From positions 175,805-239,804 of the forward strand of contig CAIOPG010000009.1 of assembly GCA_903860135.1 (NCBI GenBank): a stretch of DNA of 64,000 nucleotides, read 5' to 3'. A program made the position numbers and the translations under genes. Positions 25,369 through 41,586 of the stretch are shown piece by piece. The first letter of the stretch is position 1. Every line of letters begins with the position of its first letter. The DNA is from Candidatus Omnitrophota bacterium. Lineage in GTDB: Bacteria > Omnitrophota > Gorgyraeia > Zapsychrales > Fredricksoniimonadaceae. Under the pieces are notes generated by a model. It ran no database searches, had not been told where the DNA came from, and worked only from the letters and a program-made list of their open reading frames with translations.

Positions 25369-27080
25369 CGCAACTTCAGCCCCCTCTTGCTCAATTGTAT
25401 GATCTTATCCAATCTTGGTCCATCCCCCAGAATGCTACCAATGATCTTAAGCCCCCGTGTCACGCCACCAGTGCCTTCGGCGTGCTCGAGTGCCAACAAA
25501 AAATTGATCGCCAACTCATCCGTATAATGTGAAGGCAATATCCGTTCAAGATACGTCACCGACACAGGATATTGCTTGATCGCGTAATAATAATCTGCCA
25601 TCCCCAACTGCCCATAATAAGATAATGGCACCTTATTGAATATCCGTTCAAAAGCCGCCTTCCCGTCATCCAAACGACCCAACTGTAAATAACAAACGCC
25701 AAGATAGTAATTTGAAAGCGTTGCGTCACACCCTGGATCTTTCAGGGCAAGCAAAAAATTATCTACTGCCTCTTGATATTTCTTCAATCGAAAAAACTCC
25801 GTTCCTTTAAAGAAATAGCCCATGTGGTGCTCTGGATAAGCCTTGACCCAAGCCTCACCCAGAGAGAAATTGCTCCGCCATACCAAATTACTTGTGATGG
25901 CGGGAAGAAGTAACGAAACGATGGCCGCAGAACATAAAAAATACCGCATCCCCGCCGATAAGCGACCACCCCATACCCGCCCCCAATATACAAGGAGCGT
26001 GGCCATCAAGAACGCTATACCCACAAAAGGGATATACATATAACGCAAAGCAACTGGATTGGGATTAACCCAATAAACCAAAGCCGGCAAAAAGAAAACA
26101 CACACCCATAATGCCGCCCATGAAACCTTTGTACGCCTCATTATTAAAATAATCATTGAAGCCATCAGCGTAACAACCAGAAATGCCAGACCTATCATGT
26201 CAACAGAAAGCCATGGGCGCGGCAATGGCCAATATAGAGGCGGCATAACACCAGCAGAAAGAACAAAACAGATCTCTTTTAAATAAAGTGCCACGATCTG
26301 AACAAAAACCGACATATACTCCTGCCAGCCATACCCGACAGCAAAGTTACGTATAAAACCAGTATTCTGGAAAACAAAGAAATATACATACAAATAAAAG
26401 AATGAAATAAAAAAGAACGGCCAATAGGGCCGTTGTTTTATAACCTTTGCCTCCAGCCCAAGAATCGTTCTGTCAAAGAATACAATGACCAATGGAAAGA
26501 AGAGGGCTGTCTCTTTGGAAAACAGTGCCAGAAAATAAGCTGTATACGCAAGAATGGCCCACAGCGCAGTAATCTTCTTTCGAAAATAAAGCCAGGATTG
26601 AAACGCGATCAAGAGAAAAAAACAAGCCAGCAAGTCTGATCTGTAGCCTATCGCAGCAACAGGTTCCGTATTAGCAGGATGAATAGCAAAAATAATGGCG
26701 GCTGACAAAGCTACGAGCGGTGTCGAAAGAAGCGCAACGATCTGATAAAGCAAAAGGACATTGGCCAAATGCAATACAAGACTTGTCAGATGATACCCGA
26801 AAGGGCGATTATCCCAACCCAAACAATCAAAGAAGAAACTCATCGTCGTCATAGGCCGGTAAGCTACTGACCCCGTTCCCTTGTCAGGAGAATGGCCATA
26901 CAGCACTTCATCGGGAATAACATTATACCCGGAACGGAAAATTCTAACGATATTGGACGAGTTTTTATAAAAAGAATTGTTGCCAAAGAGAGCATGATCA
27001 TCACCGGCAAAACCATTCCATAAAACACATGAAAAACACAATAGAATCAAAACAACAAGGCTGATCTTATGCTTGAACAT
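25365..27080 (-). CDS. Polytopic membrane protein of the TMTC/PMT-like GT-C glycosyltransferase type (DUF1736-like HPxNTEPV motif) with C-terminal TPR repeats
   Basis: 571 aa. About 11 TM helices, the [10 protein letters not shown] motif, and roughly 4 TPRs in the C-terminal 180 aa. Confidence 0.5.
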
Positions 27081-27092
27081 TATAGCGTCACT

Positions 27093-27839
27093 TCAACTCA
27101 AGGAATTGTTTAGGATCGCAAAAGATACAACCGCTATCGCGGCTGTATCCACTTTTAAAACATTCTCACCGAGAGTCACAGGCACCGCACCAGCTAGCAC
27201 GGCTTCGACTGCTTCCTCAGGCGTGAAATCTCCTTCAGGTCCAATAAAAAAAACAAAATCCCCTGCATTTCGGCGCGCCGCCAGCGCCATACCCAAAGAA
27301 ATCCGTTCTCCTTCAAGCCATGGGAAAAAAAGAAATTTTCCGGGAACAGCTGTCATGGCCAGCGTTTGGAAGAAAGAAACCGGTAATGTGATCTCGGGAA
27401 ACCATGGACGCTTGCACTGTTTGGCCGCGTTGAGCGCCACCCTCTGGTAACGGGCAAGTTTATGATCAGCTTTCTCGCCGTGCACGTCGTTCTCGGTCCT
27501 TGCCGTAACCATAGGGATAATACGGTCCACCCCTAGCTCGGTGCACTTTTCAATGATCGTTTCAAATTTGGTTCTTTTGGGGATGGCGCAGGCCAGCGTG
27601 ATGTGCGGCCCATGATGCCTCGGAACAACGACAAGAGATCTGATATCAACCCAGGCCGCTGTGCGTGAAACCTCCCGAAGCACCCCTTGCGCCACGCCCC
27701 CTTGCCCGTTCACGATCTCGACGCTATCGCCTGCCTTCAAGCGCAGGACACGGGTCACATGGGCAAATTCATCAGGGTCATCGAGCAAAATACGCGTATC
27801 ATGGCCGGAAAATGGATGGAAAAATCTTCCCGCAGACAC
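27093..27839 (-). CDS. rsmE: 16S rRNA (uracil1498-N3)-methyltransferase
   Basis: 248 aa. PUA-like N-terminus and SPOUT C-terminus (GPEGDFTPEE). Confidence 0.8.
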   Translation of the reverse strand: MSAGRFFHPFSGHDTRILLDDPDEFAHVTRVLRLKAGDSVEIVNGQGGVAQGVLREVSRTAAWVDIRSLVVVPRHHGPHITLACAIPKRTKFETIIEKCTELGVDRIIPMVTARTENDVHGEKADHKLARYQRVALNAAKQCKRPWFPEITLPVSFFQTLAMTAVPGKFLFFPWLEGERISLGMALAARRNAGDFVFFIGPEGDFTPEEAVEAVLAGAVPVTLGENVLKVDTAAIAVVSFAILNNSLS

Positions 27840-27841
27840 GC

Positions 27842-28474
27842 CTAATAACCCCCGGCATTTTCTCGGAAAGTGATGCTGACTTGAGGATTGTCCGTTGTGC
27901 CAGCTGTAAGTGCCCCGGCACTCACAGCCGCGCCAGCAGACGGTGTTTTTCGTCCAACGACGGTCATCTGAAAATAATATTCTCCGGTAGCCCCATCAGC
28001 CACCAGCACAGGATCAGCAATATTGGCATGTGTAAACATATCTTTGACAACATACCCCTCAAAGGTATCTCCCGTAGTACAAGTACCCACTGCCGTCAAT
28101 TCACAACTATATACCGCTGTCTGATCAAGATCACCCGGCTTACTGAAGCAAGTCCAGTTGTCATCTGTGTAAATCTCGGGTGTGAATGCTCCCGATACCT
28201 GGACATCATGCCGAAAACAAAGTGACGAATTGGTGTTATTCAAGTAAATATTTACGCCTGTATCCGAAGGCGATCCATGAAGGCTCCGCACACTCATCCG
28301 TATCTTGTTCACTAAGTATTGAGCTTGGATGTTAATCAAGGCTTCCGAAGAAACATTACTGCCACTCTTGCGCAGTCCATAATCCACACTAAAAATGGCT
28401 GCCATCATGAAGGTGACAATAATGCTCGCCACAATAAGTTCAGCCATTGTAACGGCAGAAGAAGATACTTTCAT
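27842..28474 (-). CDS. Minor (pseudo)pilin-like protein with non-canonical class III leader
   Basis: Inferred start MKVSSSAVTMAELIVASIIV at 28474, giving a 4-nt overlap with the upstream gene. Glu at +5 and a hydrophobic helix, then a Thr/Gly-rich C-terminus. Confidence 0.5.
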   Translation of the reverse strand: MKVSSSAVTMAELIVASIIVTFMMAAIFSVDYGLRKSGSNVSSEALINIQAQYLVNKIRMSVRSLHGSPSDTGVNIYLNNTNSSLCFRHDVQVSGAFTPEIYTDDNWTCFSKPGDLDQTAVYSCELTAVGTCTTGDTFEGYVVKDMFTHANIADPVLVADGATGEYYFQMTVVGRKTPSAGAAVSAGALTAGTTDNPQVSITFRENAGGY

Positions 28475-28476
28475 AA

Positions 28477-28830
28477 TCACCAATTTACCGTCACAGTAAC
28501 CTGGCGCGTTGTCCCGAAGCCAGCTACAACCGTGTAACTGGCTGATGTCATCGAGGTGCAATTGGGATAGGATGCCACAGTAACAGCATGCGCACCGAGC
28601 GTAAGCACGCCCGTACTCCATGTAGAACCCGCCACCGACTTATTCAAGCTATCCAGTATCTCTTTACCGCATAACCCCGCAACCATCCTCGCTTCCGATC
28701 CACGCCCCGAGACCCGCGTTTGGACAATGGTAGCCAAAACCCCCGCAGATGCCACCACAAAAATAACAGACGCGACAATAACCTCGGTCATAGAAAAACC
28801 TGCCTGATCCGTATAAAATTTCATGGACAA
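28477..28830 (-). CDS. Minor pilin / pseudopilin (prepilin-type N-terminal cleavage/methylation domain)
   Basis: Leader ...DQAG|FSMTEVIVASVIFV with Glu+5. Confidence 0.6.
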   Translation of the reverse strand: MSMKFYTDQAGFSMTEVIVASVIFVVASAGVLATIVQTRVSGRGSEARMVAGLCGKEILDSLNKSVAGSTWSTGVLTLGAHAVTVASYPNCTSMTSASYTVVAGFGTTRQVTVTVNW

Positions 28831-29210
28831 TTAGCCCCCGCGCATGAAGGATTAGTTCCGGCCACAACTGGACTTGCTAATGTGACCGTGACCGTCAGAC
28901 CAGATCCAATACTGCCCACACATGTCCCGCTACCACAGGAATACGACACCCCGTCAGCAATAATATGTGTAGCCAACGCCGTATTGATAGCATTGATATC
29001 AGCAGCTACCAGATTAGTGCCGTTGTTATACAAACGATACTGGGCATTGGCGGCATGAATGATACTCAAATTATCCACAACAGAACGCCCGCGCGTGCGA
29101 TCAATCGTCTTAATAAACTGCGGGATAGCCATACCAACCAATATTCCGGAAATGACAAAAATAACCATTAACTCAATCATGGTAAAAGCTTCATTATAAA
29201 GTTTAGTCAT
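28821..29210 (-). CDS. Type IV pilin, family A paralog 1 (C-terminal Cys loop)
   Basis: Inferred start MTKLYNEA|FTMIELMVIFV. The ATG overlaps the stop of paralog A2 (ATGA). Motifs IIHAANA, AINTAL and a C-terminal C..G.NCP. Confidence 0.7.
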   Translation of the reverse strand: MTKLYNEAFTMIELMVIFVISGILVGMAIPQFIKTIDRTRGRSVVDNLSIIHAANAQYRLYNNGTNLVAADINAINTALATHIIADGVSYSCGSGTCVGSIGSGLTVTVTLASPVVAGTNPSCAGANCP

Positions 29211-29581
29211 GGACAACTTGTTCCTGTACATGTCGCAACGCCCGAACTTGTGTTCGGAGTTGTTACAACAAATCCCGTACCCGTAGCCGTGCATTCCGTA
29301 CCTGAAGAACAAGAATATGTGGCACCATCAGCCTTAATATTTAACCCGAGAGCCGTATTTATGGCAGCCACATCTCCAGCCGTAGTATTAGCTCCAGAAC
29401 GTGAAAGAAAGAGGGCATTAGCCGCATGAATAATCGAAATGTTCGTCATGGCCGAACGCGCCTTTGACCGTAAAATAGTTTTTGAAAACTGCGGAACAGC
29501 AAATGCGGCAATGATTGAAATGATGCTCAAAACAACAATAAGTTCAATCAGCGTAAACCCGCTACGCATAAAATACCTCAT
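29207..29581 (-). CDS. Type IV pilin, family A paralog 2
   Basis: MRYFMRSG|FTLIELIVVL leader. Same IIHAANA/AINTAL motifs and a C-terminal CTGTSCP. Confidence 0.7.
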   Translation of the reverse strand: MRYFMRSGFTLIELIVVLSIISIIAAFAVPQFSKTILRSKARSAMTNISIIHAANALFLSRSGANTTAGDVAAINTALGLNIKADGATYSCSSGTECTATGTGFVVTTPNTSSGVATCTGTSCP

Positions 29582-29979
29582 GGGCAACTTGAACCAGAAC
29601 AAGATGGATTTGAGTCACTTAACGCAGTAGCCAACGTGAGCGTCTCTGTAAACCCTGAACCTGTCGCAAGGCATGTCCCTGAATCAGTACAGGAATAAGT
29701 CACTCCATTCGACGTGATCTTTAACTCCAGAGCCGTATTAATGGCCACTAAATTTCCGGCTGTAGATGCATTAACATTTGAATTATTATTACGTAAACGA
29801 TAATACCCATTAGCCGCGTGGATCAGATTAAGATTGGCGATCCCTGCACGTGCATAGGCACGCTTGGTACTTTTTGAAAGAAGCGTGGTCGCAAAAATTG
29901 CTAAAATACCAACAAGCGCCAACACAATTATCATTTCAATGAGCGTAAAAGCCTGACGCATAGTTGGTCTCATGCGCAC
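29578..29979 (-). CDS. Type IV pilin, family A paralog 3
   Basis: MRMRPTMRQA|FTLIEMIIVL. LIHAANG, AINTAL and a C-terminal CSGSSCP. Confidence 0.7.
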   Translation of the reverse strand: MRMRPTMRQAFTLIEMIIVLALVGILAIFATTLLSKSTKRAYARAGIANLNLIHAANGYYRLRNNNSNVNASTAGNLVAINTALELKITSNGVTYSCTDSGTCLATGSGFTETLTLATALSDSNPSCSGSSCP

Positions 29980-30389
29980 GGCGTATTAGGACAAATTTTC
30001 TTAAGTGTGTCCGGACATGAACCACACGAAAAAGCACCCGCTGCAGACACACTAACAGTATATGAACCTGTCGCTGGCTGAACAGCGGATTTTATCGTCA
30101 ATGAAACAGCACCCGTTGATGTATTGCACACAGGTGCCGCAAAATTCGTCGGCGTAACCGTTACATCCAGATTGGCACAAGCGGCACTGGTATCATAGGT
30201 GCTTTTTTCAAGATTATACCTTATCTGAGCCGCGTTGAGCGTGTTAAGGACATTAATCCCTTCAGTAAAGATCGTTTGATCCTTCGCTCCTACCATACGC
30301 GGTACAGCCAACGACGCCAATACACCAATGATAACAATCACGACGATAATTTCAATTAATGTAAAAGCAGACGATCGTATTATATTCAT
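29970..30389 (-). CDS. Type IV pilin (distinct, 5 Cys)
   Basis: MNIIRSSA|FTLIEIIVVIVIIGVLA. C-terminal CGSCP...CPNTPCA. Confidence 0.7.
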   Translation of the reverse strand: MNIIRSSAFTLIEIIVVIVIIGVLASLAVPRMVGAKDQTIFTEGINVLNTLNAAQIRYNLEKSTYDTSAACANLDVTVTPTNFAAPVCNTSTGAVSLTIKSAVQPATGSYTVSVSAAGAFSCGSCPDTLKKICPNTPCA

Positions 30390-30401
30390 ACCATTCCAAA
30401 A

Positions 30402-30818
30402 CTAATTCTTCAATGTTGAAAAAATCCCACCCTTTATCTTTGTAACAGTTCCCGCAGGGGCATTCAGCCTAAGCGTGATCGTATCAGCAACTCCTGCACC
30501 ACCTTTTAAAGTAGCTGTCGCACCGCAAGCAGATGCATTCGCACATTCAGTAGCGGTAAATGAATACGTAAAATTAGTTGATGCCGTTGGAAATGAATAG
30601 CCCGATATTGCTGTTATATTATTACATGCCGTATAATCTTCACTGTTCTGAATATAACATTCCTGGACTTTGCGCATCAAAACGCCAAGCTGCATATAAG
30701 CCTCTGCCGCTTTGGCAATATTCACCTGAGCGCTAAGACGCGGCAAAGCTACTGCGGCCAAAACACCAATGATGATAACAACAATGATGATCTCGATTAG
30801 TGTAAAGCCTTTTTTCAT
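30402..30818 (-). CDS. Type IV major pilin, family B paralog 1
   Basis: MKKG|FTLIEIIIVVIIIGVLAAVALP. Near-identical to the next two genes. Ends KGGIFSTLKN. Confidence 0.8.
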   Translation of the reverse strand: MKKGFTLIEIIIVVIIIGVLAAVALPRLSAQVNIAKAAEAYMQLGVLMRKVQECYIQNSEDYTACNNITAISGYSFPTASTNFTYSFTATECANASACGATATLKGGAGVADTITLRLNAPAGTVTKIKGGIFSTLKN

Positions 30819-30836
30819 TACTTACCCCATTTCCAA

Positions 30837-31256
30837 TTAATTCTTTAATGTAGAGAAAATACCGCCCTTGGTTTTTGTAACAGTTCCCGCAGGGGCATTC
30901 AGGGTAAGCGTGATCGTATCAGCAACTCCTGCACCACCTTTTAAAGTAGCTGTCGCACCGCAAGCAGATGCATTCGCACATTCAGTAGCGGTAAATGAAT
31001 AGGTAAAATTACTTGATGCCGTTGGAAATGAATAGCCCGATATTGCTGTTACATTATTACATGCCGTATAATCTTCACTGTTCTGAATATAACATTCCTG
31101 GACTTTGCGCATCAAAACACCAAGCTGCATATAAGCCTCTGCCGCTTTGGCAATATTCACCTGAGCGCTAAGACGCGGCAGTGCTACTGCGGCCAAAACA
31201 CCAATGATGATAACAACAATGATGATCTCGATTAGTGTAAAACCCTTTTTTTTCAT
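30837..31256 (-). CDS. Type IV major pilin, family B paralog 2
   Basis: MKKKG|FTLIE... Differs from paralog 1 at only a few residues. Confidence 0.8.
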   Translation of the reverse strand: MKKKGFTLIEIIIVVIIIGVLAAVALPRLSAQVNIAKAAEAYMQLGVLMRKVQECYIQNSEDYTACNNVTAISGYSFPTASSNFTYSFTATECANASACGATATLKGGAGVADTITLTLNAPAGTVTKTKGGIFSTLKN

Positions 31257-31313
31257 ACATTTCCTTTTTTAGTGTTTTATTAGTATGTTCCTGCATTAAT
31301 AATATTTTTGGAA

Positions 31314-31730
31314 TTAATTCTTCAAAGTTGAAAAAATACCACCCTTTGTTTTTGTAACGGTTCCCGCAGGGGCATTCAGCGTAAGCGTGATAACATCCGC
31401 CGCCGCACCACCTTTTAAAGTAGCTGTCGCACCGCAAGCAGATGCATTCGCACATTCAGTAGCGGTAAATGCATATGTAAAATTACTCGATCCAGTTGGA
31501 AAGGAATAACCAGATATCGCTGTTACATTATTGCATGCCGCATAATCTTCACTATTCTGAACATAACATTCTTGGACTTTGCGCATCAAAACACCAAGCT
31601 GCATATAAGCCTCTGCCGCTTTGGCAATATTCACCTGAGCGCTAAGACGCGGCAACGCTACTGCGGCCAAAACACCGATAATGATAACAACAATGATGAT
31701 CTCGATTAGTGTAAAACCTTTTTTTTTCAT
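31314..31730 (-). CDS. Type IV major pilin, family B paralog 3
   Basis: MKKKG|FTLIE... Near-identical again. Preceded by a conserved 57-nt upstream region. Confidence 0.8.
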   Translation of the reverse strand: MKKKGFTLIEIIIVVIIIGVLAAVALPRLSAQVNIAKAAEAYMQLGVLMRKVQECYVQNSEDYAACNNVTAISGYSFPTGSSNFTYAFTATECANASACGATATLKGGAAADVITLTLNAPAGTVTKTKGGIFSTLKN

Positions 31731-31787
31731 ACATTTCCTTTTTTAGTGTTTTATTAATATCTTCCTGAATTAAAAATATTTTTAAAA

Positions 31788-32207
31788 TTAATTCTTCAAA
31801 GTTGAGAAAATACCCCCCTTTGTTTTTGTAATCGAACCAGCTGAAATATCCAGCTTAAGAGTGATAACATCCGCAGCGTTCGCATTGGTTCCACTGAATG
31901 AAGCTTGACCTACACAATTATTAGCATCTGGACACAGAGAAGAATTAAAATTATATGTAAAATTAGGAGTTACTGGAAATGTATAACCTGATAGAGCTGT
32001 CACCTCGTTGCATCCCGCCATGATGTCACCATTTTGAATATAACATTCCTGGACTTTGCGCATCAGAACACCCAGTTGCCTATAGGCCTCAACGGCTTTT
32101 GTAGTATTAACCTGATTCGTAACACGAGGCATAGCTATCGCTGCTAAGACTCCAATAATTATAACAACAATTATTACTTCAATCAATGTAAACCCATTTT
32201 TATACAC
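31788..32207 (-). CDS. Type IV major pilin, family B paralog 4 (diverged; GTG start)
   Basis: The ORF-track M is a GTG. The more likely start is the second GTG, giving leader (M)YKNG|FTLIEVIIVVIIIGVLAA. Same C-terminus KTKGGIFSTLKN. Confidence 0.65.
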   Translation of the reverse strand: MYKNGFTLIEVIIVVIIIGVLAAIAMPRVTNQVNTTKAVEAYRQLGVLMRKVQECYIQNGDIMAGCNEVTALSGYTFPVTPNFTYNFNSSLCPDANNCVGQASFSGTNANAADVITLKLDISAGSITKTKGGIFSTLKN

Positions 32208-32281
32208 GTATATCCTACCCACATGTTATCTGTATACAAATATGACATATTTAAATAAATAAAGCGAATATAAATAATTAA

Positions 32282-33508
32282 TTATCCTCCGGTAGATAAA
32301 GAAAGTATAGGTAGAAACATCGCGATAACAATTAGACCTATTACACCACCCATGATAACAAGCATAACGGGTTCAATAAGAATGCTGAATCGCTTCAAAA
32401 ATTCTTCAACATTAGCTTTATAATATATGGCGACATTATTCAACATCTTGCCAAGCTCACCGGTTTCCTCGCCAACACGGATCATCTGCACCGTCATCGA
32501 AGGGAAAAATCCACTTCTTTCCATTGGATCTGCCAAAAGCTGCCCCTCACGTACGGCTTCACGCACATTTCTTATAACTTCCGCACAAACCACATTATCC
32601 ACCAGTCTCTCCGATATCTCCAAAGAATAAAGAATGGGGACACCGCTTTCCATAAGGGTGGACATTTGAGATGTAAACTTCTCAATTACAATTAATTTTA
32701 TCATACCACCGAAAATAGGAACTTTAAAAAGAAAAGTCTCAAATTGCTTTCTTCCAAGAGGTGTTTTAATGTAATTCATGAAAAGAAAAATGCTTCCGGC
32801 CCCTCCAGCAATAAGTATAAAAAATCTCTCTTTCAATAATTTGAAAATTGACATCATTATGACCGTGATAGTCGGGAGCTTGATATCCATATCAGAAAAA
32901 ATACGTTCAAATGTAGGCCCGACAAAAAGAGCGAAAAACAAAACAGCTCCGATACAAATAAAACAAAGAACCATCGGATAAACAAGGGCTCCTATAATAG
33001 TAGACTTGAACTTGGCTGTATCCTCCATATATTGTGTCAACTTGTTGAGAACTTTCGGTAATGTACCAGATGCTTCACCAACCTCAATAAGACTGACCCA
33101 AAAAGCAGTAAACACCTTGGGATATTTTGAAATAGCGCTACTGAAAGTACGACCCTGTTCAACATCTGTGACTACCGCCTCAATGATGACGGTTAACCCA
33201 CGACTTTCCAGCTGAGAGCTGATGATCTTGAGCGATCGCATTAACAAAACACCTGCTCCCATCATCGCAGAAAGTTGACGCGCAAAAGAAACAACATCAT
33301 TTAATGAAATATTATTGTGCGAAAACACCCGCTTCTTTGCAACTGACGTCACAGGCTGTTGATTCTCAACAAACTGTTTTACAGCGGTTACAAAAAGCCC
33401 TTTTTGCTGTGCAAACTTAACAGCCTGCTGATCATTAATGGACTCTACAACCTCATTAAATACATGCCCTGAATTATCTTTAGCAGTAACAAGAAATTTG
33501 GCCATCAA
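32282..33508 (-). CDS. pilC: Type IV pilus / T2SS platform protein (PilC/GspF family, two T2SSF domains)
   Basis: 408 aa. Duplicated GspF-like halves, each followed by TM helices. Confidence 0.85.
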   Translation of the reverse strand: MMAKFLVTAKDNSGHVFNEVVESINDQQAVKFAQQKGLFVTAVKQFVENQQPVTSVAKKRVFSHNNISLNDVVSFARQLSAMMGAGVLLMRSLKIISSQLESRGLTVIIEAVVTDVEQGRTFSSAISKYPKVFTAFWVSLIEVGEASGTLPKVLNKLTQYMEDTAKFKSTIIGALVYPMVLCFICIGAVLFFALFVGPTFERIFSDMDIKLPTITVIMMSIFKLLKERFFILIAGGAGSIFLFMNYIKTPLGRKQFETFLFKVPIFGGMIKLIVIEKFTSQMSTLMESGVPILYSLEISERLVDNVVCAEVIRNVREAVREGQLLADPMERSGFFPSMTVQMIRVGEETGELGKMLNNVAIYYKANVEEFLKRFSILIEPVMLVIMGGVIGLIVIAMFLPILSLSTGG

Positions 33509-33523
33509 TTTCCCCAGATCAAT

Positions 33524-35233
33524 TTATATAACAATAGATAAAATTTCCTCAAGGCTCGTGACACCTTCTTCAACCTTCTTCATCCCAACTTCAAAAAGTG
33601 TCGCCATTCCAGCTTTAGATGCTGCGTCCTTCAATTCGTCATAGGAAACATTGTTACCGATCATACGCCGTATAACATCATTAATGGCAAGAACCTCTGA
33701 TACGACCATGCGTCCCCTGTATCCGGTGTGCCCGCATTTATCGCACCCTTTAGCGCGATAAATCAAATCGGTAGACAACTTGATAGACCCCAGATCTTCC
33801 GGCCTCGGTTCATAGGGCTCTTTGCAATCGGCGCATAACTTACGCGCTAAGCGCTGGCTCACAATCATCGTTAATGACGGTGTTAATAAATATGAGGGGA
33901 CACCTATATCCATCAAGCGGCTTATCGCTGACGGTGCGTCATTGGTATGCAGTGTTGAAAGGACAAAGTGACCTGTTAATGCCGCACGCACACATATCTC
34001 TGCTGTCTCAAGATCACGTATTTCACCAACCATAATGATATCCGGATCCTGTCGAAGAAACGATCGTAACGCCTGTGCAAATCCAAAGCCAATATCAGGA
34101 CGCACATGAACCTGGTTAATTCCATCAATGCGGAACTCAACAGGATCTTCTGCTGTCATAATATTCTTGGTGCGATCAAAAACTTCAGAAAGAGAAGAAT
34201 AAAGGGTCGTCGACTTACCACTACCCGTAGGTCCTGTTATAAGAAAAAGACCATACGGAACTTTAAGTGCTTTACGGATGAGTTCTAACTGGGACGCATT
34301 AAATCCAAGCGTAGCCAAATCAAGTTTTACTGCATTCTTATCCAGGATACGCATAACCACTTTCTCTCCCCAAACGGTAGGAACGGTGGACACACGCAGA
34401 TCAACAACACGGTTTTGATCAAACTTTACAGAAATACGCCCATCCTGCGGCAATCGCCTCTCGGCAATGTCAAGCCTAGAAATGATCTTAATGCGCGATA
34501 CGATCGAAGCATGAAGATGTTTTGCCGGCGGAGGGATTTGATAAAGATCACCGTCGATACGATAACGAAGTTCGATCTTGTCCTTAAAAGGTTCGATATG
34601 AATATCACTTGCCCGGTCATCAATAGCCTGCCTGATAATAAGATCCACAAGCTTGATGATCGGCGCTTCTTCGGCTGTTGCGATCAACCTGTCAAGACTT
34701 AACTCCGACTCAGATTTATCATCACCGGATGTTGAGAAATTACTCGAGTCATTCTGCGCTCTTTCAACCGCCTTTCCCCAAGCACCACCCTCATCGGCCA
34801 GATAAAACCGCTCCAATGATTTTAGAATATCGGTACGTGTCGCAATGACAAAGTTTATTTCACAACCAGTCATCTTTTTCAAATTATCGATCATAATAAG
34901 ATCAAATGGATTAAAGATCGCGCATGTCAGTGAATTACCATTCCGATTAAGTAACAATACAAGATTATCTACAGCATACTGATACGAAATAAGCTTTTCA
35001 AGGCCCTGCCCTTTTTGAGGATTCAATAGGCCTGAAGCTTCGGAGGCATATGGAATAAGAAGCTGTGTCCCAAGAGCCACAGCCAAGTCGCTTTCATTAA
35101 TAAATCCCATTTTGACCAAAATTTCTCCGACATGACTCTTGTCGGTCTTTTGGGCATCTATAGCAGACTGGAACTGGGCTTCGGTAATTAAGCCCTTTTT
35201 AATAAGTATTTCACCAAGCTTTAACCGTGCCAT
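33524..35233 (-). CDS. pilB: Type IV pilus assembly / T2SS ATPase (PilB/MshE/GspE family) with N-terminal MshEN c-di-GMP-binding domain
   Basis: 569 aa. N-terminal tandem 24-aa MshEN motifs (KLGEILIKKGLITEAQFQSAIDAQ, a 5-aa spacer, HVGEILVKMGFINESDLAVALGTQ). Walker A GPTGSGKST. C-terminal tetracysteine CADC...CDKC. Confidence 0.9.
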   Translation of the reverse strand: MARLKLGEILIKKGLITEAQFQSAIDAQKTDKSHVGEILVKMGFINESDLAVALGTQLLIPYASEASGLLNPQKGQGLEKLISYQYAVDNLVLLLNRNGNSLTCAIFNPFDLIMIDNLKKMTGCEINFVIATRTDILKSLERFYLADEGGAWGKAVERAQNDSSNFSTSGDDKSESELSLDRLIATAEEAPIIKLVDLIIRQAIDDRASDIHIEPFKDKIELRYRIDGDLYQIPPPAKHLHASIVSRIKIISRLDIAERRLPQDGRISVKFDQNRVVDLRVSTVPTVWGEKVVMRILDKNAVKLDLATLGFNASQLELIRKALKVPYGLFLITGPTGSGKSTTLYSSLSEVFDRTKNIMTAEDPVEFRIDGINQVHVRPDIGFGFAQALRSFLRQDPDIIMVGEIRDLETAEICVRAALTGHFVLSTLHTNDAPSAISRLMDIGVPSYLLTPSLTMIVSQRLARKLCADCKEPYEPRPEDLGSIKLSTDLIYRAKGCDKCGHTGYRGRMVVSEVLAINDVIRRMIGNNVSYDELKDAASKAGMATLFEVGMKKVEEGVTSLEEILSIVI

Positions 35234-35242
35234 AATTTAATC

Positions 35243-36745
35243 CTATTTCTTTTGTACACTCATAGAGTCCATGGCAGAACGAATAATGCTCTGTCTTATC
35301 ACACCGCTACTTTCGCGAATTCCAAGATCAGCAGGAACAGTGTCAACAACGAAATCACTGCCAGGATCCATGACACGGGGGGTAATAAAAATAAGGAGCT
35401 CCCTGTCTTTGGTAGTCGTAGTATCGTGACGGAACACACGCCCGAGAAAAGGAATGTCTCCTAAGACCGGAAGTTTTGTCTGAACTTTTTGTTTCTCAGA
35501 ACGTAACAATCCTCCGAGAACAACAGTTTCACCCGAATGTATCCTCATTTTAACCTTAGCACTACGGATCTCTGTGTCCTTAAAAGTCACCCCGCTATAA
35601 GTTCCACCCAAACGCGCAACAACCACGCGTGGTGAAACAGCCAGTAAAATATCACCTGTCATCAAATTTAACTGAGGCGTGACCGTCAACGTAATCCCCG
35701 TCTCAACTCGTTCAGGTTCAACAGTGGATCCTTGCGTTATTGTCGCCGCTGCCGTCACTTTAACACCAATAGCTTCCGACGCAGTAATCTTAATCTGTGC
35801 CGTTTCATTATTCATGGTCCAAATTCTTGGGCGCGCTAAATTCCTAGCATCTGTTGACGTCTTTAAAAACTGTAACATAGCCGAAAAAGCATTTCCGCCC
35901 ATCGCGCCCTGTGAATACGTAACCTCTGTGCCCCCCTTACTAAGTGCATTCTTTTGGTCAAGAGGGAAATAAAAACTCCTCCCTCCCAGTCCTTTGAAAT
36001 CATATAAGGTGTTGCCAAACTTAACACCTATCTCATCAGCTACTTCCTTAGAAACATCTATCATCTGGACTTCAATCAATATCTGGGCAACCGGCACATC
36101 CAGTTTAGCCAATGTTCGTTCGATCAAAGGAAAATTTGTATCTTCATCAGAAATGATCAGGCTGTTGGTCCGTGAATCTTCAGCGATCTTGGCCGAAGCT
36201 GTTAATACTGTTTTCAAAATATCCACGAGAGCAACGCTCGTCGTTACTGTATTGCTCCCAGCACTCGACGATCCATTACCCCCCCCTTCTTCTGCGGTAA
36301 TTCCGAATGTTGATTGCAACTTTGAAGATGCAACAGTAGCATATTTTAAAGGATAAACACGCGTTATGATATTCTTTTCAGCCTTGATATTATCGATCAT
36401 CAAAATATTGTCATTATTATCATATGAATAAGAAAGTCCATTTGCCGTCAAAATTTTTTTCAAAGCATCCTCAACAGGAACAGCATCAAGAAAAAGTGTT
36501 ATAGGGTCGGTTTTAACAGCGTCTGAAACAATAAAATTGGCACCTATCTGACGAGAGAAGGCCTTCAAAACATCCCTGATATCTGCATTCTTGAAATCAA
36601 GGGAAACAAGTTGAGAATATTGTGGAAGTATAAAACTGTTCTGACTACCAGCTGAAGTAGTGGCAGAAAAAACTTGAGTAAATAAAGAAATTTGAATAAT
36701 ATTGGTAAGTAAAAATATAAATAAATATTTATTTTTTAAACCCAT
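35243..36745 (-). CDS. pilQ: Secretin (PilQ/GspD family)
   Basis: 500 aa. Signal peptide and N-domains. C-terminal secretin core VVLGGLLRSEKQKVQTKLPVLGDIPFLGRVF. Confidence 0.85.
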   Translation of the reverse strand: MGLKNKYLFIFLLTNIIQISLFTQVFSATTSAGSQNSFILPQYSQLVSLDFKNADIRDVLKAFSRQIGANFIVSDAVKTDPITLFLDAVPVEDALKKILTANGLSYSYDNNDNILMIDNIKAEKNIITRVYPLKYATVASSKLQSTFGITAEEGGGNGSSSAGSNTVTTSVALVDILKTVLTASAKIAEDSRTNSLIISDEDTNFPLIERTLAKLDVPVAQILIEVQMIDVSKEVADEIGVKFGNTLYDFKGLGGRSFYFPLDQKNALSKGGTEVTYSQGAMGGNAFSAMLQFLKTSTDARNLARPRIWTMNNETAQIKITASEAIGVKVTAAATITQGSTVEPERVETGITLTVTPQLNLMTGDILLAVSPRVVVARLGGTYSGVTFKDTEIRSAKVKMRIHSGETVVLGGLLRSEKQKVQTKLPVLGDIPFLGRVFRHDTTTTKDRELLIFITPRVMDPGSDFVVDTVPADLGIRESSGVIRQSIIRSAMDSMSVQKK

Positions 36746-36749
36746 ACTA

Positions 36750-37220
36750 TCAATCTTTCAATAATAACTTGTAAAGAAATTCGTTGTAATCTATTTCCAC
36801 ACGGCCTTTGCGGATAGCCAAAATCCTTACCCCCTCTGATCTATCCCCCAAACCCAATATATTTCCATTTAAAATAACCATTGGATTCCTTGTTTTATAA
36901 AATATTCCTGTCACTTTCAGCACAGGCAACGAGGCTATTGATAATTTCCTTACAGGTTGCGCTGAGGGTATCGCAACAAAGTGCTTTATTTCAGGAATAA
37001 CAGCAACTATCGGTCTATCTACTACTGGCTTAACTAAATTATCAGCTTCCTTGCGAAAATCTTTACTAACAAGATCTGGTCTGGCTTTAAACGGATGGAA
37101 AGGCTCCCCAAGAGACTCTATCATCATTTCAAACGGAAGCTTATTAGTCTCATTGGCGTAAGAAAGAGTTGAATTAAAATGAAATAATTGAAAACTATAG
37201 ATAAAAAGAATATTATACAT
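36750..37220 (-). CDS. PilP/GspC-like inner-membrane lipoprotein-like component (weak)
   Basis: Short TM/signal region then a beta-rich C-terminus (LKVTGIFYKTRNPMVILNG..LGDRSEGVRILAI). Sits between PilO-like and the secretin. The start is inferred after the pilO stop. Confidence 0.35.
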   Translation of the reverse strand: MYNILFIYSFQLFHFNSTLSYANETNKLPFEMMIESLGEPFHPFKARPDLVSKDFRKEADNLVKPVVDRPIVAVIPEIKHFVAIPSAQPVRKLSIASLPVLKVTGIFYKTRNPMVILNGNILGLGDRSEGVRILAIRKGRVEIDYNEFLYKLLLKD

Positions 37221-37236
37221 TAAAAAAAGATGATGC

Positions 37237-37866
37237 CTACTTCTTTTTAAAATTTTTATGTTCATTATCTTCCACCAGTTGAAGCAACGAAATGGTAACA
37301 TCCAGCGTCATCGCATCCGTCTGGACTCCTGAATTAACCGGATTGTACTTAATCAACAGGCTATCCAATTTGATCATGTACCCGGAAGATTCCATATCAT
37401 GAACAAATAATAGCATATCCTTGACATTAAGGGAAGAAGCACTAAAACTCATACAAATAGAACGAAAAAAACCATCATTGCTAGTCTGCAATGGATTAAA
37501 AGCATCAATTGTAATTCGTCGCCGCGTGGCACGCCCTGTAACATAAGATATAAAATCAGCCTTGACCAATCCCAAAGGCATCTTGCACATATAATCAGTC
37601 AGATATTTGTTGCTTTGCTCAAGATCCTGGATAGGCTGTCTTTTTGATTGCAAAATCTTTTTTCTCGACGCAAGAGACTGATATTGATTAAAATTTTTAG
37701 TTGTAAGAAAAACTATTACACAAAATCCCAATAAAACAATCAAAGAATTAGTCGCTAAAACTAAATTCTGATTTACATAATGGTTACAATCCTTAATAAA
37801 TTTTGAAGGATTATTTAGATATATTTCGAAATTCTTTAAATCATCAAGATTCATTTCGCCTCGCAC
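37237..37866 (-). CDS. PilO-like inner-membrane pilus alignment protein (weak)
   Basis: 209 aa with a single TM near residue 45 and a coiled-coil-like region. Position is between pilMN and the pilP-like gene. Confidence 0.4.
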   Translation of the reverse strand: MRGEMNLDDLKNFEIYLNNPSKFIKDCNHYVNQNLVLATNSLIVLLGFCVIVFLTTKNFNQYQSLASRKKILQSKRQPIQDLEQSNKYLTDYMCKMPLGLVKADFISYVTGRATRRRITIDAFNPLQTSNDGFFRSICMSFSASSLNVKDMLLFVHDMESSGYMIKLDSLLIKYNPVNSGVQTDAMTLDVTISLLQLVEDNEHKNFKKK

Positions 37867-39455
37867 GTAATCGAAAACGCTGTGACTTTTCTATTATCAT
37901 ATTCTCGAACCTGTAAAGAAACAATCTTAATTTGTGTGAAATTAGTGGCGAACAAATTATCGCTATTTAAAGCATTAAAGAAATGATTAACCCTTTCAAA
38001 TTCTATATTGTTGTCCTTCAAAGACACATACCCCGAAAAGGTCATTGCCGTCTTGGTCTGAAGTGAATAATAATCAACCTCTTTGTTCCCGGGCTCAGGG
38101 ACCTTGCGCGCCGAAACAGGCTCATCTTTAAAAGACAAACTAACAGACTCAAGCCAAAATCCGGATGGCAGTCGTTTGACCAGCCGCACCAACATCTTTG
38201 TCGCCCGTGCATCGAAAGGCAATGATTTCAATGAAAATAACTTCTTGACATTCTTCATTTTCTTCTGAACGGCGTCTGACTCATCTATATCAACGTATTC
38301 CCCGATCTCCTGCTCAAGATTAACAACTTCCTGTCTAAACTTAGACAGAAGCTGATCAGCAAAGAATGCAACAGAAAAGATCAGTGTAAAAACACCGGCC
38401 CCCACCGCCAAGGGCAAAACCAATGCTTGCCTCCTCTGGTCAATTTCAACTTGCTTGAGAGAAACCTGCTGTTTGGAACCTTCAAACAAATTAAAGTCAA
38501 TAACAGTAACCACTTTACTCATCATGGCCACGCCGTAGGCATACACAGCCGCCATTGTATTGCAATCATTGTGATCTACAAGTCTAAAAATATCAACAAT
38601 CTCAACATTGACCCCGAGTTCCTCTCCCATCTTGTCCCACAAAGCATTATTTCCGCCAATGGATATGGCCACCATTCTCTGGACTTCCTCCCCGCCATAC
38701 TGACGCAAGAAGAATTCGGAAGAAATACGGATCTCATTGAAAACTTTGGAACGTAGCTCATCATCGATCTGAAGAGTGCCAACACCCTGATGCACACCTC
38801 CCTGAAGATTAAACTCACGGATAAACTTGACATACCCTTTTTCACAAATAAGGAGTTCTCCGATATAACCATCGACATAAACAATCGCCGTTAATTCATC
38901 GGGATCAACGATCTTTCTAAAAACCAATGCACGGTAAAGACTAGCCGACGCCGGTTCACTGTAAACAACATTTATACCTGCTTGCATTAAAGCATCCGCA
39001 TGTTTTTCAAAAACATCTTTACGGATAGCAACAAATATAATGCCAATCTGCCGCGGATTACTTCCTAGAATATTCGAAGGAAAATATGTGTACGACAACT
39101 CATCAATTGGGAAAGGAATATACTTCTTGGCTTCGAAGATAACAACATCCTGTATCTCGCTTGACTTCATCCACGGAATACTGAACCAGCGAATAATAAT
39201 ATCTTTTGAAGGGATAGAAAGAAATGTTTCCTGCGTTGAAAAACCTTTATTTCGAACAGATTTTTGCAGTGCATCTAGAATCTGCATATCATGCGGTAAA
39301 GACTTCTTGTCAGCAGTGGAAGCCACGTCTTCCGGCGATACAAAAGGAACAAATGTCCCTATGGCGGGTGCGTTGCTCTCCAGTTGAACCAGCGTGAATC
39401 CGCTTGATCCCGAGTAAACCCCTAATCGCTTCTCACTGGCCATACCCAACCTCAT
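37851..39455 (-). CDS. pilM: PilM-PilN fusion (actin-like ATPase domain + C-terminal TM/PilN-like periplasmic region)
   Basis: 534 aa. A PilM-like actin fold in the first ~350 aa, then the TM helix ALVLPLAVGAGVFTLIFSVAFF and a ~150-aa C-terminal region. The likely start is the SD-preceded ATG at 39443. Confidence 0.65.
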   Translation of the reverse strand: MRLGMASEKRLGVYSGSSGFTLVQLESNAPAIGTFVPFVSPEDVASTADKKSLPHDMQILDALQKSVRNKGFSTQETFLSIPSKDIIIRWFSIPWMKSSEIQDVVIFEAKKYIPFPIDELSYTYFPSNILGSNPRQIGIIFVAIRKDVFEKHADALMQAGINVVYSEPASASLYRALVFRKIVDPDELTAIVYVDGYIGELLICEKGYVKFIREFNLQGGVHQGVGTLQIDDELRSKVFNEIRISSEFFLRQYGGEEVQRMVAISIGGNNALWDKMGEELGVNVEIVDIFRLVDHNDCNTMAAVYAYGVAMMSKVVTVIDFNLFEGSKQQVSLKQVEIDQRRQALVLPLAVGAGVFTLIFSVAFFADQLLSKFRQEVVNLEQEIGEYVDIDESDAVQKKMKNVKKLFSLKSLPFDARATKMLVRLVKRLPSGFWLESVSLSFKDEPVSARKVPEPGNKEVDYYSLQTKTAMTFSGYVSLKDNNIEFERVNHFFNALNSDNLFATNFTQIKIVSLQVREYDNRKVTAFSITCEAK

Positions 39456-39511
39456 TGCTTTTATAAAAATGAATACTTTTAGCTAATAATCAATCGCAAG
39501 AAACGTATGCA

Positions 39512-39841
39512 TCAGTAACTAACATCCATCGTGAATGCCCTTGTTGCCCCTGGTCCTCCGCCGGCTACTTGGGTATAATGAACCGAATATGTTGTTCCGT
39601 CAACATATTCAGAGAAATCCGTAAGTGTTGTCGAACCACCGGCGTAAATCTCGCGTGCCCACCATAAAGCTTTTTTGGCAATAAGTTCCGCCTGAAGATG
39701 CTTTCTTTCACGTTCGGAAATAAGTGCCTGTGAATAATTTCGCGATAACACACCTAAAACCAAGATTGACATAAGCATAACAGCCGCAATAACTGTCAGT
39801 AAAATTACCCCCCGCTCACTACCGTATTCTCTTCTAATCAT
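39512..39841 (-). CDS. PilX/GspK-like minor pilin
   Basis: Inferred start MIRREYGSERG|VILLTVIAAVMLM. The ORF-track start is a 37-aa upstream extension overlapping the next gene. Confidence 0.45.
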   Translation of the reverse strand: MIRREYGSERGVILLTVIAAVMLMSILVLGVLSRNYSQALISERERKHLQAELIAKKALWWAREIYAGGSTTLTDFSEYVDGTTYSVHYTQVAGGGPGATRAFTMDVSY

Positions 39842-40073
39842 GAATTCCCTCCTCAAGATAACTCTGACAAAGTGGACAACGCACAACCTCAGTCTTTCCG
39901 TTACTGATAATGATATGGCTGCAATAGGGGCATTGCCTAACAATACCCGCACTTGATGCCTCCCTGTTTACGCCATCATCCACAACGGCATATTTAAACC
40001 ACATAAACCCAAAAAAAATAATCATGACAGAAAGACAAAGACTTACGCCCAAGGCAATATCTATCGTGATCAT
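39834..40073 (-). CDS. Small membrane protein with C-terminal CPxC...CPLC zinc-ribbon
   Basis: 79 aa. N-terminal TM (LGVSLCLSVMIIFFGFMWF), then CPYCSHII-(12 aa)-CPLCQSY. Overlaps both neighbours by 4-8 nt. Confidence 0.5.
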   Translation of the reverse strand: MITIDIALGVSLCLSVMIIFFGFMWFKYAVVDDGVNREASSAGIVRQCPYCSHIIISNGKTEVVRCPLCQSYLEEGIHD

Positions 40074-40498
40074 GGCAACCTCAAACGAAGATCTAATGGT
40101 GCTACAGGAACATCCTCAACAACTGCCACAGAAGGTTCATCGCGATCCTCAGGAACAACCCTTACACCGGAAAAATGAAATATATCCTTATCCTCCGGTG
40201 GCATACTTCTATAAAAAGATTCAGGTTTCTCTGCCTGCAAGGAGCGCAACCACCCTCCTGATAAGTATAATGGTACGGTACTATCATTAATCTTTTCTTC
40301 AACTTGCAGGACTGAAACTTCATGACGCGAAGGAATAACTTCCTGCGGGCTTAAAATATTGCCCAAGAAGACAACATCGAGTTTGTACGTGTTGTTAACA
40401 GCTCCTTTAAATGAAAAGATCACAAAAGTTAAAGCGATGGCGTGCATGATGCCCGCCGTTAATACCCCTATCATCGGAGAATGCCACTTCACTAGCAT
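40070..40498 (-). CDS. TonB/TolA-like N-terminal anchor protein lacking a recognisable C-terminal domain
   Basis: 142 aa. TM (IGVLTAGIMHAIALTFVIF) with a conserved His. Acidic/Pro-rich C-terminus (PEDRDEPSVAVVEDVPVAPLDL). Start coincides with the exbD stop. Confidence 0.35.
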   Translation of the reverse strand: MLVKWHSPMIGVLTAGIMHAIALTFVIFSFKGAVNNTYKLDVVFLGNILSPQEVIPSRHEVSVLQVEEKINDSTVPLYLSGGWLRSLQAEKPESFYRSMPPEDKDIFHFSGVRVVPEDRDEPSVAVVEDVPVAPLDLRLRLP

Positions 40499-40896: not shown

Positions 40897-40899
40897 GCC

Positions 40900-41568: not shown

Positions 41569-41586
41569 TTAGGCATCCTTCGGCTA

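Follow-up and report, generated by a model that had tools for sequence, protein, structure and literature searches.

Four tandem type IVa-like major-pilin genes in a pilus-like locus of an uncultivated freshwater Omnitrophota

Does a pilus locus that carries several nearly identical major-pilin genes serve to vary the pilus surface, or does it hold an ordinary gene family that supplies subunits? The question is raised by a 64-kb window, the whole stretch of DNA analysed here, from an uncultivated freshwater Omnitrophota, in which a first-pass annotation had described four tandem pilin genes and suggested that they are substrates for recombination and for antigenic or phase variation. In Streptococcus sanguinis, pilE1 and pilE2 are placed in tandem in the pilus locus. 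According to excerpts of two reports (PMC10628169, PMC6497953), their products PilE1 and PilE2 are near-identical major pilins that form a stochastic heteropolymeric type IV pilus, and the single mutants stay piliated. The pilE/pilS system of Neisseria has a single gene that is expressed, together with silent cassettes that are 5'-truncated and lack a promoter, with G4-dependent initiation and strong diversification (PMC4023411). Stigmatella aurantiaca has two tandem pilA genes in its T4aP cluster, about 70% similar and called unusual, and in Pseudomonas stutzeri the pilAI and pilAII genes, 55% identical, affect transformation in opposite ways (both cases from PMC6060248). Within the Omnitrophota, excerpts of one survey (PMC10066038) report T4aP genes in most genomes of all classes and propose that type IV pili are central to attachment to other cells.

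The four-gene array is real. Four complete prepilin ORFs, here called A to D, follow one another head to tail on the minus strand and occupy exactly the span first annotated, 30402-32222; in this type IV pilus-like operon they are flanked by the platform gene pilC and by six genes for minor pilins (Table 1). The direct repeat units of ~440-475 bp in the first annotation correspond to the periods of 435 and 474 nt found by Tandem Repeats Finder (scores 1742 and 1698); the repeat families of the array have 3-4 copies at a spacing of 435/474/477 nt. For pilin A, the GTG at 32207, which is the start called in other assemblies, is the more likely one; at the alternative in-frame GTG, at 32222, a relative designated L008 has an ATG.

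Table 1. Features of the pilin array and the adjoining genes, with positions in the window (a slash marks the prepilin cleavage site)
Feature	Position	Strand	Remarks
PilM-like protein	37851-39455	-	weak C-terminal PilN match (fusion)
Secretin, PilQ/GspD-like	35243-36745	-	
Assembly ATPase PilB/GspE	33524-35233	-	N-terminal MshE-type c-di-GMP-binding motif
Platform protein PilC/GspF	32282-33508	-	
pilC-pilin A spacer	32223-32281	-	AT-rich; 74 nt counted from 32208; 73/74 identical in the 92% relative
Pilin A, diverged paralog	31788-32207 or 31788-32222	-	MYKNG/FTLIE from the start at 32207; ~64% aa and 68-72% nt identity vs B/C/D
A-B spacer	31731-31787	-	57 nt; SD-like AAGGAAA and 16-nt A/T palindrome TTAAAAATATTTTTAA
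Pilin B	31314-31730	-	138 aa; MKKKG/FTLIE; identical to P0002, present on 4 contigs
B-C spacer	31257-31313	-	57 nt; 51/57 identical to A-B spacer
Pilin C	30837-31256	-	139 aa; ORF in array
C-D spacer	30819-30836	-	18 nt; not related to either 57-nt spacer; separate duplication junction (435-nt unit)
Pilin D	30402-30818	-	138 aa; 95% nt identity to C
Minor pilin m1	29970-30389	-	begins 12 nt after D
Minor pilins m2, m3, m4	28821-29979	-	tandem paralogs; 44-47% aa identity
Minor pilins m5, m6	27842-28830	-	~117 aa and ~212 aa; one-to-one orthologs in all relatives examined

The proteins have the features of major pilins. The prepilin motif PF07963 (Pfam N_methyl) is present in 4/4 genes at 28.8-32.2 bits, against a cut-off of 21.2, and pilins C and A match TIGR02532 at 33.5-34.6 bits (cut-off 16.3). 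Leaders of MKKKG, MKKG and MYKNG (or MGRIYVYKNG), short as in T4a pilins (less than ~10 aa), precede the cleavage site G/FTLIE. This site has the typical Gly at -1, Phe at +1 and Glu at +5 and is followed by a hydrophobic helix, and the mature protein of 134 aa is within the T4a size range of ~130-160 aa. The predicted fold combines a long alpha1 helix at the N-terminus with an antiparallel beta-sheet of four strands on which it packs, and a profile search of solved structures matched type IVa pilins across the globular domain (E=5.5e-16 to 1e-13). PDB 6xxd and 6xxe were among the structures matched. Sequence profile and predicted fold together place these putative subunits with the type IVa pilins, and the designation of the four as major-pilin paralogs is borne out by motif, profile, fold and operon position. 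Other details of the first description need revision. Each pilin has four Cys rather than five, at positions 55, 66, 92 and 98, of which Cys55 and Cys66 hardly vary across the family alignment; the pairing is probably 55-66 and 92-98. A C-terminal disulfide-bonded D-region is common in T4a pilins, though not universal; A-D lack this feature and have no Cys near the C-terminus. With Ser+Thr at 15-18%, the pilins are only moderately rich in these residues. An electrically conductive e-pilin was considered and rejected: mature pilin C has 10/134 aromatics (7.5%) with a 46-residue gap, while the thresholds that Walker et al. are said to have proposed in 2018 are aromatics of ~9.8% or more and gaps of ~40 or fewer residues.

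The neighbouring genes speak less clearly for a surface pilus. NCBIfam scores are nearly tied for the ATPase (GspE 587 vs PilB 622 bits), the platform protein (GspF 317 vs PilC 291 bits) and the secretin (GspD 196 vs PilQ 195 bits); all are below both equivalog cut-offs, and they do not separate pilus from pseudopilus. These ties leave room for a reading in which the array encodes GspG-like major pseudopilins for a type II secretion-like apparatus and not surface-pilus subunits, which we consider unlikely. The best NCBIfam match of the pilins is indeed GspG, on the N-terminal helix, but the GspG model TIGR01710 scores only 41-43 bits, where the cut-off is 88.85, and its match is confined to residues 4-63; likewise the GspG structure is matched in the profile search at E=1e-8 over the helix alone, whereas type IVa structures match the whole head domain. 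The PilM-PilN fusion has an architecture that in our view resembles GspL, but neither a GspC-like gene nor a large GspK-like one was found at the locus. PilT, whose absence from the window would also suit pseudopilins, is one of two genes that we did not find within the 64 kb, the other being PilD (prepilin peptidase); no F-type ATPase genes adjoin the pilus cluster within the window. The minor pilins m2, m3 and m4 each finish in C-x-G-x-x-C-P. Published surveys, as excerpted from PMC10066038, class the Omnitrophota clusters as type-4a pili; these are clusters of the same kind in the same phylum, and the excerpts describe no tandem major-pilin arrays among them.

The array is also found outside the window. 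In L008, which has ~92% DNA identity and comes from another study's assembly, the same four genes occur with spacers of 57/58/18/12 nt, the ortholog of pilin A has 96.2% nt identity, and four-gene order and spacers are kept across about 8% DNA divergence. An independent assembly has the same four-gene layout, giving two contigs with four copies, and in a third sample a 1.7-kb fragment of matching spacing breaks inside the array. Other assemblies depart from this layout. One has three copies, of which one is a C/D chimera with its crossover between codons 69 and 82, and is exactly 435 bp shorter, as judged from protein sequences and gene coordinates; one scaffold contains a 100-N gap that starts in the 5' part of B and ends in the 3' part of C. 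The three-copy contig represents either real unit loss or assembly collapse, and the copy number of the array may therefore not be fully fixed. Since short-read assemblies of the population disagree, pilin copy number in such MAGs is not to be taken at face value.

Could the copy number as a whole then be an artefact, in which short-read assemblers expanded, collapsed or chimerised the units? Assemblies of the same population do yield four copies, three copies with a chimera, an N-gap and a broken fragment, and the near-identical middle of C and D (dS 0-0.04) is where collapse would occur. We nevertheless regard this as decidedly improbable. With DNA differences of 5-9% between copies and junctions of two kinds (57-nt vs 18-nt), the units are resolvable at k=141, and the four genes, their spacers and an orthologous 3' end per copy were found independently in the 92% lineage of another study, which an artefact would not reproduce.

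The spacers bear on how the array was built and how it may be transcribed. The ~90% identity of the two 57-nt segments and their SD, as first noted, are confirmed, with AAGGAAATGT immediately before the ATG, but the claim that every unit has a conserved upstream region is not: the 57-nt segment stands only ahead of B and C, whereas D and A are preceded by unrelated spacers, the 74-nt spacer of A being AT-rich. At the C-D junction, which is unique in the array, TTGGAAATGGGGTAAGTA lies between the 3' end of C and the 5' end of D. A sigma-70 and terminator scan of 27500-33600 returned sites no commoner than in shuffled sequence and none within the 57-nt spacers, so that the idea of a separate promoter for each unit is without support. 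RNA folding of the spacers gave weak A/U hairpins only (-1 to -4 kcal/mol), the 12-nt gap between D and m1 contains no hairpin, and Rfam and tRNA scans of the whole 64-kb window gave no matches. The main promoter and 5' UTR are likely to lie in the pilC-A spacer.

The four genes comprise three near-identical copies and one diverged copy, as had been proposed. B, C and D are 92-97% identical in protein sequence (B vs C, 7 residue differences; C vs D, 5; B vs D, 12), and A has 50-54 residue differences from the other three. A does share the C-terminus, where it ends in KTKGGIFSTLKN; of the substitutions first given as examples, L/T is absent, the actual one being T/R at TLT/TLR. The variable mature positions among B, C and D fall without exception (11/11) in residues 57-130, and 0 in the 51 N-terminal residues (Fisher p=0.007), which upholds their reported clustering in the C-terminal half, that is, in the globular head. 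Such a concentration of variable sites in the head is the generic pattern for any pilin.

Comparison of synonymous and non-synonymous changes points to conservation rather than diversification. Across the units, dN/dS is 0.04-0.28 overall (about 0.07-0.27 for paralogs and about 0.04-0.25 for orthologs), which indicates purifying selection and no overall diversification. In codons 116-end, dS between paralogs is 0.23-1.0 (0.5-1.0 for pairs involving C) and dN is 0-0.05, and because dS at the 3' end is high with almost no amino-acid change, the duplications are old and under purifying selection. In codons 85-115, round the Cys92-Cys98 loop, only two pairwise values come near or up to 1, w=0.64 (B-B8) and w=1.1 (B8-C8), each from 6-9 non-synonymous changes; this local enrichment in some pairs may reflect some diversifying pressure on the loop. 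A PHI test on B, C and D of the window and the ~92% relative gave p=0.004, with 223/496 informative-site pairs incompatible, and the mosaic site patterns show gene conversion among B, C and D. P0124 and P0127, variants in other assemblies, are C/D mosaics. As orthologs are at hand in two lineages, the conversion tracts are directly readable. Thus the part of the first-pass annotation that saw the units as substrates for recombination stands, as inter-paralog gene conversion and as the C/D chimera with one 435-bp unit missing in one assembly; the part that invoked antigenic or phase variation does not.

A programmed variation system in the style of Neisseria pilE/pilS, in which recombination alters or switches the expressed pilin, is highly unlikely. 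The locus is like that of Neisseria in having several pilin-related sequences with gene conversion between copies (non-reciprocal in Neisseria), and the C/D mosaics, the confinement of amino-acid differences to the head with a local excess at the Cys92-Cys98 loop, and a proposed host dependence of Omnitrophota that could favour surface variation (excerpts of PMC10066038) would fit such a system; but here 4/4 copies are full-length with start codon, SD-like sequence and signal peptide, no truncated silent cassette was seen, the G-quadruplex motif G3+N1-7 x4 is absent from both strands of 29001-33600, no recombinase or invertase is among the Pfam-annotated locus genes, dN/dS falls well short of 1, lineages 8% apart have kept the number and order of the genes as well as the spacers, and with only 5-12 residue differences among B, C and D there would be very little antigenic novelty to gain from shuffling them.

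We consider it probable that A-D are functional major-subunit paralogs (PilA-type, type IVa-like) of a pilus-like apparatus encoded on the chromosome, a stable family that gives dosage or a mixed-subunit pilus and not programmed variation. The array arose by old tandem duplications, which first separated A from the ancestor of B, C and D, then B, and then C and D with a different junction. Exactly four genes have been retained across at least 8% genomic divergence, with each copy under purifying selection. Occasional gene conversion homogenises B, C and D over short stretches, while the 3' ends retain their positional identity; there, synonymous differences at alignment positions 353-420 tell the copies apart. 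Transcription may start from a promoter within the conserved pilC-A spacer, or a little way upstream of it, and continue as one transcript into the minor pilins. The near-identical copies could increase production of the most abundant structural subunit, assemble together into a mixed filament, or both, and A, 36% different in protein sequence, may be an alternative or additional subunit.

This stable-family reading has partial counterparts in known systems. As in S. sanguinis, so far as the excerpted reports describe it, more than one complete, highly similar major-pilin gene is found in the pilus locus, with differences in head loops; unlike S. sanguinis, the uncultivated Omnitrophota has four copies, of which three share 92-97% protein identity, and its locus is of the diderm type and includes a secretin. 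S. aurantiaca and P. stutzeri share with it a lineage-specific duplication of the major pilin with paralogs that cluster by genome, inside the pilus cluster in S. aurantiaca (PMC6060248; also PMC3776727). Those are, however, two far more diverged copies with no concerted evolution documented, whereas here four copies show measurable gene conversion and orthologs are kept across lineages. Thermus thermophilus, in which one machinery handles more than one major pilin (PilA4 and PilA5; 6xxd, 6xxe; wide and narrow pili), is a possible model for A vs B/C/D. PilA4 and PilA5 are very different from each other. To our knowledge, their genes do not form a tandem array.

A variant of the mixed filament is that all three of B, C and D, perhaps joined by A, are expressed and form a stochastic three- or four-subunit mosaic pilus whose few surface-loop differences are continually reshuffled by conversion and unequal crossing-over, of which the C/D chimera of the three-copy contig would be an instance. 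We think this improbable. If true, it would give a host-dependent nanobacterium population-level diversity of the pilus surface, for example for phage evasion or host matching, and would be a low-amplitude alternative to the silent-cassette strategy in which all copies are expressed. On the stable-family reading, that four expressed-looking major-pilin genes are kept in one lineage suggests a high subunit demand or a mixed filament; the array is an ordinary gene family that leaves known pilus biology unchanged, and its locus neatly illustrates how, in nature, a tandem gene family of a bacterium undergoes concerted evolution.

That the low-GC pilus cluster was recently acquired by horizontal transfer was rejected as the simple explanation, given the pilC ... 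rsmE-TPR-recA-recX-alaS synteny common to all relatives. A scan of GTDB genomes, with a query pattern that matched the generic pilin helix, included at least one close relative among the matches listed, the Omnitrophota MAG ELA167. Major-pilin copies at the relatives' syntenic loci number 1, 2, 2 and 4, with 1-2 in the more distant relatives, and copies within a genome are 77-97% identical in amino-acid sequence, always above pairs between genomes (60% or less).

Four major-pilin genes, A to D, lie head to tail on the minus strand of the window, as the first-pass annotation had proposed, and the arrangement is evident both in the ORFs and in the repeats beneath them: Tandem Repeats Finder returned periods of 435 and 474 nt (scores 1742 and 1698), and a repeat finder returned families of three to four copies, spaced 435/474/477 nt, far above chance. 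Pairwise comparison gives 7 differing positions for B against C, 5 for C against D, 12 for B against D, and 50-54 for A against any of the three. The 57-nt spacers ahead of B and C, previously described as alike, are identical at 51 of 57 bases, and both carry AAGGAAA five bases ahead of the ATG. A conserved upstream region for every copy, as also claimed, was not found: the segment is common to B and C only, and the spacers ahead of D (18 nt) and A (74 nt, AT-rich) are unrelated to it. Each protein has four cysteines rather than the five first counted, and the description as Ser/Thr-rich is corrected to a Ser+Thr content of 15-18%. The variable mature positions among B, C and D do cluster, with all 11 in residues 57-130 and the first 51 residues invariant (Fisher p=0.007), but the same pattern is seen in any pilin family.

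Coordinates of the array and of associated features in the window and in related loci
Feature	Locus	Position	Strand	Remark
Four-pilin array	window	30402-32222	minus	four ORFs
Pilin A	window	31788-32222	minus	144 aa from upstream GTG; 139 aa from GTG at 32207
Pilin B	window	31314-31730	minus	138 aa
Pilin C	window	30837-31256	minus	139 aa
Pilin D	window	30402-30818	minus	138 aa
Promoter-like motif	window	32304-32331		overlaps pilC coding sequence
D-m1 gap	window	30390-30401		12 nt
Minor pilins m2, m3, m4	window	28821-29979	minus	tandem paralogs
Pilus ATPase	window	33524-35233	minus	
TPR-ExbB-ExbD module and two small ORFs	window	39512-44070	minus	TPR protein of 827 aa
Hairpin spacer	L002	8412-8472		immediately 3' of major pilin
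Hairpin spacer	L007	2172-2260		immediately 3' of major pilin
Hairpin spacer	L005	6025-6109		immediately 3' of major pilin
Gap of 100 Ns, scaffold_5	L090	4761-4859		5' part of B to 3' part of C

The array sits in a gene cluster that reads, along the minus strand, TPR protein, ExbB and ExbD, two ORFs of unknown function, a PilM-like protein that also matches PilN weakly, two small uncharacterised proteins, secretin, ATPase, PilC/GspF, the four pilins, six prepilin-like genes (the minor pilins m1-m6), and then rsmE, a TPR gene, recA, recX and alaS. The best-scoring model for the ATPase is PilB, although over its full length it falls between PilB and GspE in score and under both equivalog cut-offs. 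Its N-terminal MshE-related c-di-GMP-binding motif (56.9 bits against an NCBIfam cut-off of 38) suggests that pilus assembly may be under c-di-GMP control. Because type IV pilus models and type II secretion models give nearly the same scores for ATPase, platform and secretin, all under the equivalog cut-offs, we call the machine type IV pilus-like. This near-tie would allow the array pilins to be type II secretion pseudopilins, which we regard as unlikely since the subunits themselves are T4a-like, not GspG-like. A profile built from 44 family members matched solved type IVa pilins across most of the globular domain (E=5.5e-16 to about 1e-13; Shewanella PilA 9laa, Neisseria PilE and Pseudomonas PilA are among them), whereas GspG was matched in the helix only (1e-8). 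All four proteins pass the Pfam threshold for the prepilin N-methylation motif, C and A also pass TIGR02532, and the cleavage site is G|FTLIE. The AlphaFold2 model of pilin C (mean pLDDT 85) places four strands after a helix that spans residues 8-58; a Foldseek structure search gave nothing useful. Cys55 and Cys66 are nearly invariant across the family, and a short loop lies between Cys92 and Cys98; the classical C-terminal disulfide is absent from the array pilins. The C-terminal motif K-x-K-G-G-I-F-S-x-L-K-N is kept even in A and occurs in variant forms in more distant relatives. A conductive pilin was ruled out by an aromatic content that is too low.

Independent assemblies bear on whether the copy number is real. 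Contig k141_37917 (ERZ27313599) is 100% identical to the window over 12.4 kb, a 258,189-bp contig of ERZ1426836 has four genes spaced as in the window, and the spacing in a 1.7-kb fragment of ERZ1426828 agrees. L008, a contig from an unrelated study (ERZ4223863) that is 92.0% identical over 8.6 kb, likewise has four genes (A8 to D8), with spacers of 57, 58, 18 and 12 nt. Assemblies of one population nevertheless disagree. ERZ1426842, judged from protein sequences and gene coordinates, has only three copies (A, B and P0124), and its locus is shorter by exactly 435 bp; P0124 is a C/D chimera, resembling C as far as codon 69 and D from codon 82 onward, with its crossover in a nearly identical C/D stretch (dS 0-0.04 over codons 57-115). 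In scaffold_5 of SAMEA6872998, Ns replace part of the array and the D gene (P0127) has a C-like middle. These variants are either real products of unequal crossover and conversion in the population or the result of assembler collapse. That the array's copy number is purely an artefact of assembly is nonetheless quite improbable, since the array is reproduced in the diverged L008 lineage with orthologous copy-specific 3' ends.

Every array copy is under purifying selection, with dN/dS (Nei-Gojobori) of 0.07-0.27 among window paralogs and 0.04-0.25 for window-L008 ortholog pairs. In the final 24 codons, dS is 0.23-1.0 among paralogs (0.5-1.0 in pairs containing C) with dN of 0-0.05, as against an ortholog dS of 0-0.30; thus the duplications long predate the split between the window and L008, and the protein sequence has been tightly held. 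Ortholog DNA identity is 96.2% for A, 92.6% for B, 95.5% for C and 94.5% for D, and C and D within the window are 95.0% identical. Informative sites are mosaic, grouping orthologs at the 3' end (positions 353-411) and the extreme 5' end and often grouping same-genome copies mid-gene: C with D at 54, 213 and 332-333, B8 with C8 at 106 and 108, B8 with D8 at 252, 284 and 293, and all three L008 copies at 300. Incompatible pairs number 223 of 496 (permutation PHI test, p=0.004), and B8 and C8 show no difference at any site of their first 56 codons. Together these data show gene conversion among B, C and D after the lineages split, with copy number and order unchanged, and so bear out the recombination between units that had been anticipated. 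The antigenic or phase variation suggested alongside it is very improbable as a programmed, Neisseria-type system, as gene conversion is the only one of four defining features retained, and truncated silent cassettes, a G4 element (a search for the motif found none) and diversifying selection are all lacking.

We consider it probable that the array genes are functional paralogs of the major pilin and form a stable family, maintained under purifying selection and homogenised in part through gene conversion, that would supply subunit dosage and/or a mixed filament. A may serve as a diverged alternative subunit. Among more distant relatives sharing the pilC ... rsmE-TPR-recA synteny, L005 has one major-pilin gene (within-genome identity not applicable), and L002 and L007 have two each (77% and 83% amino acid identity), against four in the window and L008 (92-97% for B/C/D); L009 stands outside this comparison, its contig ending shortly upstream of the pilin gene. 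Relatives have one-to-one orthologs of the minor pilins m1, m5 and m6, and the minor pilins of L002 and L007 are 64-73% identical, whereas in every genome the major pilins are closer to each other than to those of any other genome (<=60%). This likeness by genome would fit repeated lineage-specific duplication or concerted evolution. A second tandem set in the operon, m2, m3 and m4, shows 44-47% mutual identity, each C-terminus reading C-x-G-x-x-C-P; relatives have two genes of this type, one of them upstream of the major pilins in L002 and L007.

The 74-nt pilC-A spacer is identical at 73 of 74 positions between the window and L008, compared with 92% for the whole locus. A promoter-like motif, TTGTTA-N16/17-TATAYT, occurs at the end of pilC or shortly after it in all five lineages (window, L008, L005, L002 and L007), a recurrence that could be coincidence, and L002 and L007 have a similar motif within a 170-nt spacer ahead of the second major pilin. 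A generic sigma-70 scan gave no more sites than in shuffled sequence and none in the 57-nt spacers, which fold weakly; no terminator was found between pilin genes in the promoter/terminator scan. We infer a single putative promoter upstream of A, from which the whole array would be transcribed by read-through into the minor pilins. In L002, L005 and L007, a strong GC-rich hairpin, terminator- or attenuator-like, follows the last major pilin (-27 to -34 kcal/mol, whole spacer); the D-m1 gap has no hairpin in the window or in L008, where it is also 12 nt.

Tandem or multiple pilA genes are already known in several systems. Two very similar major pilins of S. sanguinis are described as polymerising stochastically, single mutants remaining piliated, in a mixed filament that the authors term unusual (PMC10628169); this is the precedent for a mixed filament. 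The two pilA genes in the S. aurantiaca cluster are likewise termed unusual, other myxobacteria are reported to have one to seven pilA homologs, and pilAI/pilAII of P. stutzeri is another such case (PMC6060248, PMC3776727); multiple pilin genes are also described in archaea (PMC4858521). The locus differs from these in degree, not kind: it has four copies, three at 92-97% protein identity, kept across lineages with directly readable conversion tracts, in the phylum Omnitrophota. Type-4a pilus clusters are reported as common throughout that phylum (PMC10066038), and among the matches listed the closest named homologs and the closest syntenic genome are from Candidatus Omnitrophota; the GTDB genome scan was dominated by generic pilin-helix matches.

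Neither pilT nor pilD was found within the 64-kb window, and a scan of it gave no Rfam families or tRNA genes. Housekeeping genes make up the remainder of the window (arg, dap and his genes, gatAB, secDF, uvrA, ribosomal proteins). GC content is 0.35-0.47 over the pilus cluster (about 26000-44000) and 0.50-0.55 in the flanking housekeeping genes; the cluster is not a simple recent island, because rsmE-recA-recX-alaS synteny is kept in all relatives. Standard T4aP machinery does not include a Ton/Tol-like motor module such as the one lying immediately upstream of the PilM-like gene. From 1 to 64000, the minus strand carries all substantial annotated genes and the GC skew stays below zero.
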